DNA of 64,000 nucleotides, from positions 448,001 to 512,000 of the forward strand of contig CAXXOA010000002.1 of the NCBI GenBank assembly GCA_963666275.2. The letters run 5' to 3'. Shown here one piece after another: positions 8,525-31,320 of this stretch. The first letter of the stretch is position 1; each line of letters begins with the position of its first letter. The stretch is from Oceanispirochaeta sp. (GTDB taxonomy: Bacteria > Spirochaetota > Spirochaetia > DSM-2461). A program made the translations under genes and the position numbers. The notes below the pieces were generated by a model, which was given only the letters and a program-made list of their open reading frames with translations, made no database searches and was not told where the DNA came from.

Positions 8525-8553
8525 AAAAAAAGCAGCCTCCGGGCTGCTTTTTT
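8525..8553. terminator. Bidirectional intrinsic terminator between the GH63-like gene and recR
   Basis: A7-GCAGCC-tccg-GGCTGC-T6 between convergent genes. Confidence 0.85.
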
Positions 8554-9151
8554 AATCTTCAGTTCTAAATACCATTCGTCCTCTCAAAGCTCGTGAGATG
8601 CTCATTTTGTCGGCATATTCCATATCCCCGCCCACAGGCAGACCGGAAGCAATTCTGGATACAACGATATCTCGATCCTTCAGAATATGCCGGATATAGA
8701 GGGCAGTCGAATCCCCTTCCAGTGTCGGATTCGTGGCCAGAATAAGCTCTTTGATTCCCAGGGCCTCTATCCTTTTCAATAACTTGTCAAATCCCAGTTC
8801 TTCCGGTCCTATTCCATCCAGAGGGGCCAGGACTCCATGCAGAACATGATAGTATCCTTTAAAATCACCTGTGCTTTCAATCATCTGCACATCCTGTGAT
8901 TCCTCTACGACACACAGAGATGTGGTATCCCGGGAGGGAGAGGAGCAGATGGAACACAGGTCCTCCTCTGTAAAATTACCGCACTCTCTGCATTTGTGAA
9001 TTCTCTCTTTCAGCTCCGCAATCGACTGGGAAAGTTTACGATTATAATCTTCATCCCCTTTCAACAGAGAGTAGGCCATCCTGGCGGCACTTTTCTTTCC
9101 AATCCCCGGCAGCCGCGATAAAAGGGATATGAGATTATCCAGTGTATTCAT
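8552..9151 (-). CDS. recR: Recombination mediator RecR
   Basis: LPGIGKKSA HhH, C4 zinc finger (CRECGN..CSIC) and Toprim (ATNPTLEGDSTA). Confidence 0.97.
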   Translation of the reverse strand: MNTLDNLISLLSRLPGIGKKSAARMAYSLLKGDEDYNRKLSQSIAELKERIHKCRECGNFTEEDLCSICSSPSRDTTSLCVVEESQDVQMIESTGDFKGYYHVLHGVLAPLDGIGPEELGFDKLLKRIEALGIKELILATNPTLEGDSTALYIRHILKDRDIVVSRIASGLPVGGDMEYADKMSISRALRGRMVFRTED

Positions 9152-9472
9152 CTACACTCCGGGAAATCCGGGGGGAATAGGCATTCCGGTTACATCTGAC
9201 ATTTCATCGCGAATTTTCTCTTTTATTTTTCCATAGGCAGCAGTACAGGCGGAAACAATGAGTTCTTCCAGCATTTTGACATCCCGGGGATCAACGGCCA
9301 CAGGATCAATGGCAATACCTGTGATCTCCATCTGGCCATTCATAGTAACTTTTACAAGATCACCGCCGGCACCGCCTTCTGCGGATATACCTTTCAGTCT
9401 CTCCTGCATATCACCCATTTTACCCTGGATATCCTGAAGGTTTTTCATAAATTCCATAGGATTGAAGTCCAT
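9152..9472 (-). CDS. ybaB: YbaB/EbfC nucleoid-associated protein
   Basis: Motif GGAGGDLVKVTMNG..LEELIVSA, in the canonical position between dnaX and recR. Confidence 0.93.
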   Translation of the reverse strand: MDFNPMEFMKNLQDIQGKMGDMQERLKGISAEGGAGGDLVKVTMNGQMEITGIAIDPVAVDPRDVKMLEELIVSACTAAYGKIKEKIRDEMSDVTGMPIPPGFPGV

Positions 9473-9525: not shown

Positions 9526-10035
9526 TCAGGGCTTTTTAATAATTGTTCCACGGAAAACAGACCGGACAAGTTCAACCTGTTCTTCCAGCTGCTTTTCTTC
9601 ATGGGATTCATTTTTCTTTACTGCTGCCGTAAACAAGACCTGCCAGCCCAGCTCTTTAAGGATAATTTTTTCTATAGTACGAAACTCTTTTTTCACAAGA
9701 GACCCCGCAAAAGGGCTGTCAAAAAGGAGAGTGATATTACTCTCTTCTTTCTTCCATTTTACAGCTTTTTCAAGTCCCGCAGCGATTGAAATGCTTTCCC
9801 GCCTCAGAACTGTCAGAATTTTCTGTTTCAGTTCTTCCACATCTGTTTCAGGGACAACGGATGCTGCAGCCGTTTCAGAAGCTTTTTCTTCCGGGACGGG
9901 TATCTCCGGTTTCACTTCCACCTCTGCCGGTGGTTCCGGTTCTTTCATCACCGGTGAGGCTTTGGCGGGCTGATGTCCCATTTCCTGAATTTTTTTATCA
10001 AACGCCTGAGACAGGGGTGTCTCAGGCGGATTCAG
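9526..10035 (-). CDS. dnaX: C-terminal (tau-specific) segment of DnaX, in the -1 frame relative to the dnaX 5' part
   Basis: The frame is open from the A12 run (KLNPPETPLSQAFDKKIQEMGHQ...). It encodes a P/E-rich linker and ends VELVRSVFRGTII, resembling the C-terminal F-x-G motif of tau proteins. Confidence 0.75.
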   Translation of the reverse strand: MNPPETPLSQAFDKKIQEMGHQPAKASPVMKEPEPPAEVEVKPEIPVPEEKASETAAASVVPETDVEELKQKILTVLRRESISIAAGLEKAVKWKKEESNITLLFDSPFAGSLVKKEFRTIEKIILKELGWQVLFTAAVKKNESHEEKQLEEQVELVRSVFRGTIIKKP

Positions 10036-11225
10036 TTTTTTTTTTTTACCTCTTGCTGCACAGCAGACACCTGGGGGCCTGCAGCTCCCAGCTGTTCTTT
10101 CATCCTGCCGAGTTCGCCAAGAAGTTCTTTTGAATCTATATGATACCTTATAGAAGAGAGCCTGCTTAAAAGAAGCTCCAGCTCAAACCGCGGATTGATG
10201 GAGTACCGGATATCCCGGAATAACTGTAGAACCTCTTCCAGAGCCCATTCCACCTGATAGGCATTCAGATTCTCCAGAACGGAAGATTCAAATCTGTCAG
10301 GAGTATATCCCAGAAGGGATTCTTTTTTGACTCCGTGAAAAATAAATAGAATATTTCTGAAATACTCGGCCAGATCTATTATAAACTGCTCGATTGAAAC
10401 GCCGCTGCTGATGATCTCATCAAAATTCTCCAGAGCTTCTTCCGGTTTTTCCTCTACAAGAAGTTTCATAAGACTGTTGAGCTGATCCAGACCGATAAGA
10501 CCTAGCTTTTCCTGGATCTTATCCAGAGAAATATAGCCATCCGAAAAGGAGGCGATCTGGTCATAAAGGGTATAGGCATCACGGACAGATCCTGTTGATT
10601 CCCTGGCTATCCAGTAGAGGGCATCATCATCAAACTTGATTTCAAGCTCTTTACAGACGTTTTCCAGAAGCCTTTTGATCTCATTGATATCAATCAGTCT
10701 GAAATTGAACTGCTGACACCGGGACCGGATGGTGGCGGGAACCTTGTGTATTTCCGTGGTGGCAAATATAAAAATGATATAGGGAGGCGGTTCCTCTATG
10801 GTTTTCAGCAGCGCATTAAAAGCACTGTTGGAAAGCATGTGAACCTCATCAATTATATAAATCTTATACTTGGAACTGTTCGGGCTGAAAAGGACTTCAT
10901 CCTTGATCTCCCTTATATCGTTGACACCGGTATTGGAGGCTCCATCTATTTCTATTACATCCAATGAGTTTCCACGGGCAATTTCCCTGCAGTTGGGACA
11001 GACACCGCAGGGTGTAATTGTCGGTCCCTCTACACAGTTAAGGGAACGCGCCAGGATCCTGGCTGAGGATGTCTTTCCTACACCCCTGGGACCGGAAAAG
11101 AGATAGGCATGGGCAATCCTGCCGTTTTCGATAGAATTTTTCAGTGTTGCGACAACAAAATCCTGACCAGTAAGTTCTATCAGAGACTGGGGTCTTTTTC
11201 GGGATGCGGTTACTTCGTAATCCAT
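10032..11225 (-). CDS. dnaX: DNA polymerase III gamma/tau subunit, N-terminal AAA+ and collar domains (gamma-sized product, 397 aa)
   Basis: HAYLFSGPRGVGKTS, C4 zinc module, IIDEVHML, NALLKTIEEPP and SRC motifs. The frame stops at AAC TGA right after the A12 run. Confidence 0.97.
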   Translation of the reverse strand: MDYEVTASRKRPQSLIELTGQDFVVATLKNSIENGRIAHAYLFSGPRGVGKTSSARILARSLNCVEGPTITPCGVCPNCREIARGNSLDVIEIDGASNTGVNDIREIKDEVLFSPNSSKYKIYIIDEVHMLSNSAFNALLKTIEEPPPYIIFIFATTEIHKVPATIRSRCQQFNFRLIDINEIKRLLENVCKELEIKFDDDALYWIARESTGSVRDAYTLYDQIASFSDGYISLDKIQEKLGLIGLDQLNSLMKLLVEEKPEEALENFDEIISSGVSIEQFIIDLAEYFRNILFIFHGVKKESLLGYTPDRFESSVLENLNAYQVEWALEEVLQLFRDIRYSINPRFELELLLSRLSSIRYHIDSKELLGELGRMKEQLGAAGPQVSAVQQEVKKKN

Positions 11226-11284: not shown

Positions 11285-11407
11285 CCCCTCAGCTCCACCC
11301 AAGTAACCTATGGCACATCAAACAATCGCTTACGGCTGCTATCTTCCGATCCTGACCGGGTTGGGCGACGTTCAATTGCATAGAACCTGGATATCAACAC
11401 TGAAGGG
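11285..11407 (-). ncRNA. ffs: Signal recognition particle RNA (small bacterial SRP/4.5S)
   Basis: The minus strand has the conserved helix-8 core CCGGTCAGGATCGGAAGATAGCAGCCG, and the termini pair (CCCTTCAG...CTGAGGGG). It lies directly upstream of dnaX-ybaB-recR. Ends are approximate. Confidence 0.9.
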
Positions 11408-11412
11408 AAAAA

Positions 11413-11501
<89 letters not shown>

Positions 11502-11557
11502 AAAAAAAATATTACTGTTACACCGGGATATCCGGTTTCCCATAAAAAAGCAGGGAA

Positions 11558-11631
11558 TATGCCCAAGAGGATTCGAACCTCTGACCCTCAGTTCCGCAAA
11601 CTGATGCTCTATCCATCTGAGCTATGGGCAC
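11558..11631 (-). tRNA. tRNA-Arg(GCG)
   Basis: GTGCCCATAGCTCAGATGGATAGAGC, anticodon arm TCAGT-TTGCGGA-ACTGA, GGTTCGAATCC, TGGGCAT-A. Confidence 0.95.
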
Positions 11632-11636
11632 GTGTA

Positions 11637-11723
11637 CGGAGAGGGAGGGATTTGAACCCTCGGTACGGTTACCCGTACAACACCTTAGCAGGGTGCCACC
11701 TTCGGCCACTCGGTCACCTCTCC
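11637..11723 (-). tRNA. tRNA-Ser(GCT)
   Basis: Anticodon arm GCACC-CTGCTAA-GGTGT, long variable arm, GGTTCAAATCC. Confidence 0.96.
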
Positions 11724-11769
11724 TGGTTGTGTCCGCTCCCAACAGGAATTCCTGTTTTTAACGAACTTA

Positions 11770-11854
11770 CGGAGAGGGTGGGATTCGAACCCACGGTAGG
11801 TCTCCCTACGCTGGTTTTCAAGACCAGATCCTTCGACCGCTCGGACACCTCTCC
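11770..11854 (-). tRNA. tRNA-Ser(TGA)
   Basis: Anticodon arm CTGGT-CTTGAAA-ACCAG, long variable arm, GGTTCGAATCC. Confidence 0.96.
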
Positions 11855-29280: not shown

Positions 29281-29961
29281 ATGGTAAAAGAATATGAAGG
29301 AAAAACAGAAAGGGAGGCAATTGAAAAAGCAGCAGCTGATCTTGGTCTTGAGCAGGATCAATTTGATGTTGAAATTGTAGAATCAGAACAGCATGGTTTC
29401 TTTTTCAAGAGAGGTATTGTAAAGATTCGCGTCCATCTCAACGATGGACAGGATAAAAGTTCTGTTTCTGAGAAAAAATCAATTGCACCCTCCGGGGATA
29501 TTGAAACAAGTTTAATTGCTTTTCTTGAAAAGGTTATTGAACTGATGGGTTATCCCGGGGAAGTTAGCATCAGCTTCAGAAATGAAGATAAAGTAGGTTT
29601 GGATATTAAATCCTCCCATTCAGCCATACTTATTGGAAAAAAAGGGAAGAATCTTGATGCTCTTCAGATGCTTGTAAATGTTTACGCCAGTAAAATGGGC
29701 GGAAATGACTATACAGGTAAAATTATTATTGATACGGAAAATTACAGGCAGAGACGGGAGGAAAATCTTATCCGTCTGGCAAATAAGACTGCTGACCAGG
29801 TTTGCAAGTCAAAGTCTTCCAAACTTCTGGAACCAATGAATCCTTTCGAAAGGAGACTGGTACATATGGCTTTAAATGAGAAAGATGAAGTCATTACAAA
29901 AAGTGAAGGGGAAGGACTGTATAAACAGGTAAGAATTATTTACAAGGGAAGCAATCAGTAA
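29281..29961 (+). CDS. jag: Jag/EloR/KhpB RNA-binding protein (Jag_N, KH, R3H)
   Basis: EGKTEREAI, KH motif LIGKKGKNLDALQ and R3H motif MNPFERRLVH. Confidence 0.94.
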   Translation: MVKEYEGKTEREAIEKAAADLGLEQDQFDVEIVESEQHGFFFKRGIVKIRVHLNDGQDKSSVSEKKSIAPSGDIETSLIAFLEKVIELMGYPGEVSISFRNEDKVGLDIKSSHSAILIGKKGKNLDALQMLVNVYASKMGGNDYTGKIIIDTENYRQRREENLIRLANKTADQVCKSKSSKLLEPMNPFERRLVHMALNEKDEVITKSEGEGLYKQVRIIYKGSNQ

Positions 29962-29977
29962 ATATAATAATGACTTT

Positions 29978-30014
29978 AAAAAAAAGGGTTAACCATTCCG
30001 GTTAACCCTTTTTT
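29978..30014. terminator. Bidirectional terminator between jag and thrC
   Basis: A8-GGGTTAACC-attcc-GGTTAACCC-T6. Confidence 0.88.
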
Positions 30015-30015
30015 A

Positions 30016-31320
30016 TTATGAAAACATCCTATGGAGTGTCTGTTTCAGATCATCCAGAGTATTTCCAATAAGTGATGATACTTTCTCTTTATCTTTTACT
30101 TCCAGAAGGGACTCAGGAAGCACAGGATCGTGTCCAACTGCTTTCTTGAATACTTCCCTGAATTTACCGGGATGAGCCGTAGAAAGGACAGTAACATTGG
30201 AATTCGGGTTGTTTTCAAGGTATGTCCTGGCAGCTTTGATTCCAACTGCAGTGTGTGGGCATATTTCATATTTATAATCGGTATAGATCTGCTTCATTGT
30301 ATTAAGTGTCATTTCATCATCGATAAAAAATCCCTGAATATCAGCCCTCATTTTATCAATATCATTGCTGTATAGGGTCTGCATCCGCTCAAAATTACTG
30401 GGAGAACCCACATCCATAGCATTGGAATAGGTCTGAACGGAGGGACGGGGAGTATAAATTCCGGATTCCAGATATTGGGGAATAACATCATTTCTATTTG
30501 TGGAAGCCAGGAAAGTTCTGATAGGGAGGCCCCACTTTTTGGCATATAGTCCGGCAGTGAGATTCCCGAAATTTCCACTGGGTACGCAGAAGACAGGATC
30601 AGATATATTCTGACTTTTTAACTGTGAATAGGCCCATATATAGTAGAAGGACTGGGGAATCAGGCGTCCAAGATTGATAGAATTGGCAGAGGTAAGATTG
30701 ATATTTTTCAATTCCCTGTCCTGAAAAGCCTCTTTGACCATTTTCTGACAGTCATCAAAGGAACCTTCCACCTCAAGGGCATGGATATTTTTTCCCAGAG
30801 TTGTCATCTGCTTCTCCTGCAGAGGACTTATCCTTCCTTTTGGATAGAGTATGACAACATCAATATTTTCCTTGCCGAAAAAAGCCTTGGCAACAGCACT
30901 TCCCGTATCTCCGGACGTAGCGGTCAATATAACAGCTCTTTCAGAGTTTGTTTTCAGAAAATATTCCATTGACGCAGCCAGAAAAGAGGCACCGAAATCT
31001 TTAAAGGCCGAACTGGGACCGTGAAAAAGTTCGAGGATCTGAAGATTATCCTGAAGTTGTTTCATCACTGGGACAAAATGGAAGGCGTTTTGAACGAGAT
31101 TTTCAGAATCCTTCTCAGAAATTTCATCGCTTAGAAGGGTATAGATAAGGGAGGACGCTATTTTATTAAAAGGGGTATCTGCCGTAAAGCTTGAAAAAAG
31201 GTCTTTCATATCAGGAAATTCTGTAGGATAGAAAAGTCCGCCATCCGGGGCTAACCCCTGAAACAGGGCCTCCTGGAATGACATCCTGATCGATTTATCT
31301 CTGGTACTGGCAAATTGCAT
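30016..31320 (-). CDS. thrC: Threonine synthase
   Basis: GLAPDGGL, LELFHGPSSAFKDFG (PLP lysine), ATSGDTGSAVA, SANSINLGRL and PSGNFGN. Confidence 0.96.
   Translation of the reverse strand: MQFASTRDKSIRMSFQEALFQGLAPDGGLFYPTEFPDMKDLFSSFTADTPFNKIASSLIYTLLSDEISEKDSENLVQNAFHFVPVMKQLQDNLQILELFHGPSSAFKDFGASFLAASMEYFLKTNSERAVILTATSGDTGSAVAKAFFGKENIDVVILYPKGRISPLQEKQMTTLGKNIHALEVEGSFDDCQKMVKEAFQDRELKNINLTSANSINLGRLIPQSFYYIWAYSQLKSQNISDPVFCVPSGNFGNLTAGLYAKKWGLPIRTFLASTNRNDVIPQYLESGIYTPRPSVQTYSNAMDVGSPSNFERMQTLYSNDIDKMRADIQGFFIDDEMTLNTMKQIYTDYKYEICPHTAVGIKAARTYLENNPNSNVTVLSTAHPGKFREVFKKAVGHDPVLPESLLEVKDKEKVSSLIGNTLDDLKQTLHRMFS

Follow-up and report, generated by a model that had tools for sequence, protein, structure and literature searches.

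A conserved poly-A recoding site divides dnaX of an Oceanispirochaeta genome and of other Spirochaetia into gamma- and tau-frame parts

In this work we analysed a window of 64,000 nucleotides (the whole stretch of DNA that was studied) from Oceanispirochaeta sp., in which dnaX changes reading frame at 12 consecutive As. Judged by comparison with its relatives, the recoding site is real and conserved; it lies in a core replication gene and has a two-ORF dnaX layout that has been known since 2013. The elements that are conserved are a run of at least nine As and stops in both of the frames that do not lead to tau, and at the level of sequence this combination is the signature of slippage of the Thermus type. 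We consider it reasonably probable that the 566-aa tau is made mostly by RNA polymerase slipping on the A run, as in Thermus but with the default product reversed.

The positions of the features are collected in Table 1. The A12 run, the 397-aa ORF, the GAGG element, the hairpin and the extension of the -1 frame to 9526, all described in an earlier sequence-only reading of this DNA, were found again on recheck. Gamma is, as proposed there, the default product, as plain reading of the zero frame stops at 397 aa, and tau does need recoding, as its C-terminal part sits in the -1 frame: one A added to the run gives a 566-aa DnaX fusion with the tau C-terminal domain. The first ORF matches NCBIfam PRK06647.1 over positions 1–382 of 568 (654.5 bits, for a cutoff of 623) and is above the cutoff for TIGR02397 also. 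The best named relatives in a scan of genome contigs belong to the Spirochaetales (58–65% identity), and the gene order (SRP RNA, dnaX, ybaB/ebfC, recR) is typical. The third frame, absent from the sequence-only reading, is likewise shut, the stops in the two non-tau frames being 1 nt and 11 nt past the run; after loss of one A or gain of two, this third-frame stop would end a gamma-like product of 400–401 aa. The warning given earlier, that automated annotation would call two genes or a pseudogene, was well placed, as the split is real and conserved and the locus is neither of these; such genes are likely annotated as a truncated dnaX followed by a hypothetical protein. Directly upstream of dnaX, positions 11294–11854 hold the SRP RNA and tRNA genes for Ser GGA, Arg GCG, Ser GCT and Ser TGA; for tRNA-Arg, GCG and TCG are present in the genome and ACG is absent.

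Table 1. Features of the dnaX locus and its downstream neighbours (positions in the window)
Feature	Position	Strand	Remarks
dnaX zero-frame ORF	10032..11225	-	397 codons; AAA+ ATPase, lid and domain III; gamma-like product
GAGG SD-like element	10049..10052	-	no stronger than the encoded residues predict
A12 run, recoding site	10036..10047	-	A10–13 at the same place in 11/11 genus genomes; followed by a single C and the zero-frame stop
A_AAA_AAC heptamer, zero frame	10035..10041	-	possible -1 ribosomal shift site; final base not conserved
Zero-frame stop TGA, ending gamma	10032..10034	-	1 nt past the run
Third-frame stop TGA	10022..10024	-	its T is a wobble base of the tau frame
11-bp hairpin	10003..10028	-	6 nt past the heptamer, 7 nt past the run; lineage-restricted
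-1 frame tail	9526..10035	-	169 codons; variable linker and tau C-terminal KH-like domain; frame open from the run to the stop at 9526..9528
ybaB/ebfC, downstream neighbour	9152..9472	-	Pfam PF02575
recR, downstream neighbour	8552..9151	-	Pfam RecR domains

Among the 11 genomes of the genus, nine are split in the -1 direction at runs of A10–13, one is split in the +1 direction at A10 (genome G006, locus L009), and one is continuous with A10 (genome G009, locus L008); eight of the 11 runs have at least 11 As. An uninterrupted dnaX in relatives, which the sequence-only reading named as grounds for refutation, is not what the genus presents, ten of its 11 members being split at an A10–13 run. The comparison with related spirochaetes that it proposed bore out the A run and, in nine of 11 genus genomes, the -1 offset, but not conservation of the hairpin across the genus. 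The +1 case could be a one-base homopolymer miscall, as A11 would make it like its sister L010; G006 is not an indel-rich assembly, because no frame change was found among 147 of its orthologous genes (400 kb of its 4.0 Mb) by a detector that found 115 when 147 deletions were planted.

The class was surveyed with 99 Spirochaetia loci, 93 of them usable once one half-gene, one duplicate and 4 truncated loci had been removed; they include 7 of the 80 loci from the scan of genome contigs, which returned mostly non-spirochaetes. A run of at least nine As within codons 370–440 is present in 44 of the 93 loci and in none of 450 N-terminal and 79 tail control windows, fractions that are neither prevalences, as the survey was non-random (20 regions were picked for a short open frame), nor probabilities, as kin are not independent. 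These 44 runs are mostly A10 (27 loci), the others being A9 (4), A11 (6), A12 (6) and A13 (1); 21 of the loci, from five families, need a -1 shift, one needs +1 and 22 are in frame. All 22 informative splits occur at runs of at least nine As and none at a run of 6–8 As. Locus L127, a candidate split without a run, was set aside as uninformative, its linker containing an N gap. On a quick tree of 98 rows (including 1 Leptospira locus), used only to count changes and with a midpoint root that falls at one mis-extracted long row (L130), the split(-1) state changes 8 times, at least 5 of these changes being forced by well-supported branches. A scan of metagenomes by alignment gave 80 loci, 5 of them too short; 18 of the 75 usable ones carry a run of at least nine As, and of these 10 are split(-1), 8 are in frame and none needs +1, several of the metagenome loci being identical or nearly so to genome loci or to each other. 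Metagenome contigs gave 0 matches to a degenerate DNA pattern specific to the genus, and in the other classes of the phylum none of 129 matches had an open frame of 385–425 aa, frame length being the sole criterion. Six loci of family f10 (L022, L146, L147, L149, L154 and L155) have an in-frame A9–10 run later in the gene, at about codon 415, with little linker before the C-terminal domain and a +1-frame stop 1 nt past the run. Two further dnaX matches, G049:C12:377-1511 and G032:C132:4891-6037, are broken in the conserved N-terminal part (near residues 146–152 and 254–266), probably as a result of assembly errors.

The A12 tract exceeds chance: it is the sole 12-base A/T run in this 5.27-Mb genome, and the single longer run, an A14, falls outside the called ORFs. 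Measured against a within-gene codon shuffle of 3878 ORFs, coding A runs are rarer than expected, at ratios of 0.27 for length 9, 0.12 for length 10 and 0.07 for length 11. The genome has tRNA-Lys genes for both anticodons, UUU (two copies) and CUU (one). Among its few coding runs of at least 10 As is an A10 at G000:C3:30066-30075 (minus strand), well within an ORF of about 29389–30397, which is a possible second slippage site.

Both non-tau frames are shut within 30 nt past the run in 42 of the 44 class loci, compared with 22.9% of null positions in the same tails, and in 13 of the 18 metagenome loci, a lower share that, like the lack of +1 cases there, counts against slippage. The stops of the two kinds of genes were also counted separately: 20 of 22 in-frame genes have a +1-frame stop within 15 nt (null 26%), in a frame out of reach of -1 shifting, and 16 of 21 split(-1) genes have a third-frame stop at that distance (null 33%). 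In the genus, the third-frame stop owes its T to a wobble position that is T in all 11 genes though the codon to which it belongs is Pro, Val or Ala, while only 3 of 123 four-fold columns are invariant; among the 13 columns where a T would create a stop, this one is the only all-T column. Conservation of this stop is not explained by a pure -1 ribosomal shift, because such a shift never enters that frame.

The tail matches PRK06647.1 at positions 465–563 of 568 (E 2.4e-4) and an HMM built from 66 continuous spirochaete DnaX tails (E 7.6e-25), and divergence over the last 108 tail codons of the 11 genus genes is 0.37/0.23/0.61 by codon position, a coding pattern. These comparisons show a tau-type part under coding constraint. 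A structure model from 71 tails has a mean pLDDT of 72, its last 27 residues being poor; in a fold search with this model, chain E of 5FKU (E. coli replicase), which we take to be tau, ranked first and the tau C-terminal domain 2AYA third (E 0.011 and 0.029, both weak), with DnaA domain I between them and nothing at E ≤ 0.001. Pfam gave no tau family for this genome's own tail, Pfam DnaX_C matches 16 of the 71 aligned tails at E ≤ 0.1, and a PDB sequence search with the 71-tail alignment matched DnaA domain I and not tau. A second copy of the tail was sought in the genome and none was found. The recoded tails of loci L113–L117 (family f33; genomes G174, G133, G149, G114 and G164) have only 54–99 codons and do not match the tail HMM, and they end in the Phe-x-Gly-type terminal motif of the longer tails, whose Phe and Gly are shared by all 71 of these longer tails; it may be this motif, and not the KH-like domain, that spirochaete tau cannot do without. 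Five loci from small genomes (L121, L122, L124, L131 and L132, families f3 and f13) encode a continuous short DnaX of 432–499 aa with no match to the tail HMM, and they were rejected as splits for that reason.

The hairpin is real and beyond chance in this genome: it has a perfect 11-bp stem and a 4-nt loop, with a folding energy of -27 kcal/mol (z = -5.0; 0/200 shuffles as stable), and its stability is matched by none of 2000 synonymous recodings, so that it is not a by-product of the peptide. It is, however, not general. Among the 11 genus members, hairpins are strong in L001, L007 and L008, borderline in L002 and absent in seven; the strong stems of L007 (0.0005) and L008 (0.0075) differ from that of this genome and the borderline one of L002 (0.055) is a weakened copy of it, while in L005 and L032 the downstream region is essentially unstructured. 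Hairpins at p < 0.01 in 3 of 11 members are nevertheless above the chance prediction. In the class, 4 of the 21 split loci are in the top decile for downstream structure in a 45-nt window. A search for upstream stem-loop conservation in the genus was negative, with 2 of 11 members in the top decile, as are 8 of the 21 split loci, mostly from family f33. The GAGG element, noted earlier just 5' of the run, does not stand out by itself: SD-like pairing beats that of linker windows in 10 of 11 genus genes, but compared with synonymous recodings of the same residues its mean percentile is 0.39 in the genus and 0.43 in this gene, and we rejected it as an independent signal because the encoded G/E/D residues account for it. 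The G/E-rich residues could themselves be selected for SD-like pairing. The heptamer is variable too, the A6 in the 21 split(-1) loci being followed by C in 10, G in 2 and T in 1, with A7 only in 8. Of the features listed in the sequence-only reading, the A run is conserved, and the hairpin and the SD-like element find no support as general ones. On the opposite (+) strand, positions 10003–10047 read as a hairpin followed after 7 nt by T12 and score as a terminator-like site; it is possible that this site stops antisense transcription, although the gap before the T run is atypical.

We propose that RNA polymerase would slip on the A12 run and add one A, giving a tau-frame transcript. Slippage would lead to a mixed mRNA pool, in which transcripts with +1 (or +4, or -2) As would give tau and all other A lengths would stop within 11 nt, yielding near-identical gamma proteins of about 397–401 aa. 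Across the Spirochaetia, a change in run length or phase would flip the default form, with both forms still made, and the hairpin of this genome would be an optional, lineage-restricted extra that may contribute to -1 shifting by the ribosome. An effect of the hairpin on the polymerase at the run is impossible, as its sequence has still to be transcribed when the run is copied. For bacterial RNA polymerase, 9 As or Ts are enough for efficient slippage (Atkins 2016, PMC5009743), and slippage is favoured because the runs sit at this threshold of at least nine, whereas a ribosomal heptamer needs only A6; because both non-tau frames are closed, matching the description of Thermus; because the genus keeps the wobble T of the third-frame stop unchanged; because three registers occur, with a 21:1 bias that fits the addition of As in diminishing proportion in Thermus; because the hairpin, the SD-like element and the end of the heptamer show no clear conservation; and because this genome avoids coding runs of at least nine As and, like Thermus, has both Lys tRNAs. 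That the ribosome is the main route to tau, by hairpin-stimulated -1 frameshifting at A_AAA_AAC or by sliding on poly-A, is a real possibility, if not a probable one. The spacing of 6 nt between heptamer and hairpin is typical of -1 shifting, and the stability of the stem was described above; the -1 direction is needed by 21 of the 22 split genomes and by 10 of the 10 split metagenome loci, and one-direction clusters are a sign of ribosomal shifting according to Antonov 2013 (PMC3711429). Ribosomes slide into several frames on at least 11 As in E. coli extracts (Koutmou 2015, PMC4363877), a threshold that A12 and eight of the 11 genus runs reach, and such sliding would likewise favour stops in both frames; in addition, a reversed dnaX with E. 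coli-like stimulators is described in Chlorobium (Atkins 2016, PMC5009743). Against a ribosomal route, the hairpin is missing from seven of the 11 genus members, which nevertheless require that shift or retain the run, the SD-like pairing does not exceed what the amino acids predict, just 2 of the 21 split loci have A_AAA_AAG, the heptamer most prone to shifting (A_AAA_AAC is weaker in E. coli; PMC5009743), no informative split lies on 6–8 As, the commonest run length in the class, 10 As, falls short of the threshold for sliding, and the conserved third-frame stop is left unexplained by a pure -1 shift. Slippage and ribosomal shifting can coexist. A wider reading would see a class-wide poly-A switch in dnaX whose default has repeatedly switched from one form to the other, tau or gamma (the genus alone contains the three registers: nine -1, one +1 and one in frame), to which this lineage has added a ribosomal -1 hairpin, so that two recoding mechanisms meet at one site intermediate between the Thermus and the E. 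coli solutions; we regard this combination as rather unlikely.

A homopolymer assembly error hiding a continuous dnaX is barely conceivable. Homopolymers are error-prone, and the run length, which the sequence-only reading wanted checked in raw reads, could be compared with Logan contigs of runs X1 and X2, which span 9400–10716/10718 and agree on A12 base for base, with 0 differing letters and 0 gaps; this is weak support, as these are contigs and not raw reads, of a depth of about 12 and from one sample that is possibly the source of the stretch, and in runs X3 and X4 the site is outside coverage. Conservation is decisive: the split is judged real because ten of 11 genus genomes are broken at the same run, nine in the same direction, and the same split is found in four other families and in 10 of the 75 usable metagenome loci. 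By these comparisons the split is not an assembly error, a reading that is already largely refuted. Run length might instead change in DNA replication by slipped-strand mispairing, so that cells would differ in frame and the assembly would record one state. Run length (10 to 13) and register do vary within the genus, but the contigs hold no length variant (though contigs drop rare variants), cells locked in the gamma-only state would be without tau, and the registers track the tree (they are clustered, with 0/500 shuffles as low), which makes this explanation extremely improbable. It is also very unlikely that the tail is made separately from its own start codon, or is dispensable. A 151-aa ORF does begin at an ATG at 9981, a good SD-like site (-9.0 kcal/mol) accompanies a GTG located 40 codons into the tail, and the short DnaX of some small-genome spirochaetes has no tail match. 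The 22 split loci, however, share no internal start codon with an SD, tau-frame conservation already holds for the residues right past the run, ahead of any start, in-frame relatives, including the genus member L008, carry the same sequence fused, and the run with its double stop would be purposeless. A dispensable tail also fits poorly with E. coli, where tau alone is reportedly essential.

The closest published case, which the sequence-only reading left unmentioned, is the set of 17 two-ORF dnaX genes from 12 genera, with a -1 offset at the DNA level, described by Antonov et al. 2013 (PMC3711429); 12 of the 17 have poly-A runs, nine of them with 10 As, and slippage was predicted. The genome set of that study held 10 spirochaetes, and the accessible part of its text names only Chlorobi. 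As in those genes, the zero-frame ORF ends here at gamma size with the tau part in the -1 frame, so that recoding is needed, and the poly-A run is conserved in position and direction (-1 at A9–13 in 9 of 11 genus and 21 of 44 class loci). The present case differs by its spirochaete host (one is possibly among the 12 genera), its longer A12 and its perfect hairpin, and by close relatives with an in-frame and possibly a +1 register. In Thermus thermophilus, dnaX slips on A9, with As added in diminishing proportion and stops in both non-zero frames (PMC5009743, PMC1088944). The spirochaete gene resembles it in a run of at least nine As where the gamma part ends and in stops close by in both of the non-tau frames, two lysine tRNAs are likewise encoded in the genome, and the 22 in-frame spirochaete loci have the Thermus layout; unlike here, in Thermus the unslipped product is tau and slippage was shown by experiment, whereas here the unslipped product is gamma and slippage is predicted. 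With the -1 frameshift site of E. coli dnaX it shares an A-rich slippery heptamer, a downstream stem-loop, an upstream purine-rich stretch and the gamma/tau pair; it differs in the heptamer (A_AAA_AAC and not A_AAA_AAG), in the run (A12 and not A6) and in polarity, as in E. coli tau is read in the zero frame and gamma made by the shift, and conservation of the stimulators finds no clear support in the relatives studied here. In Blochmannia vafer and B. floridanus, dnaX is also out of frame at a poly-A tract, where slippage was proposed to restore tau (Williams and Wernegreen 2010, PMC3017870). In that eroding, AT-rich kind of endosymbiont the ribosomal shift site lies upstream of the break, while the present break is itself the gamma/tau switch and occurs in a 5.3-Mb genome of 48% GC that otherwise avoids such runs. 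The dnaX of Borrelia seems to be without a frameshift element in the accessible part of a preprint (10.1101/2022.10.17.512582). A literature search outside most subscription journals found no description of this dnaX site in spirochaetes, and the accessible parts of PMC4066793 and 10.1101/2025.10.02.679949 hold nothing specific to it.

Our observations extend gamma/tau recoding of dnaX to the Spirochaetia, allowing that a spirochaete may already be in the set of Antonov 2013. What is added is the comparative evidence on the mechanism and the switching of polarity within one class, possibly within one genus. The conserved third-frame stop provides an argument from sequence alone that helps to tell polymerase slippage from -1 ribosomal shifting, a question that Antonov 2013 (PMC3711429), in the part accessible, left as a prediction, and sister genomes that differ in register and hairpin form a ready natural test series. 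A role of gamma is supported in E. coli (PMC4756838), and a two-product switch that is kept repeatedly, in either polarity, argues for selection on gamma far from the Proteobacteria.
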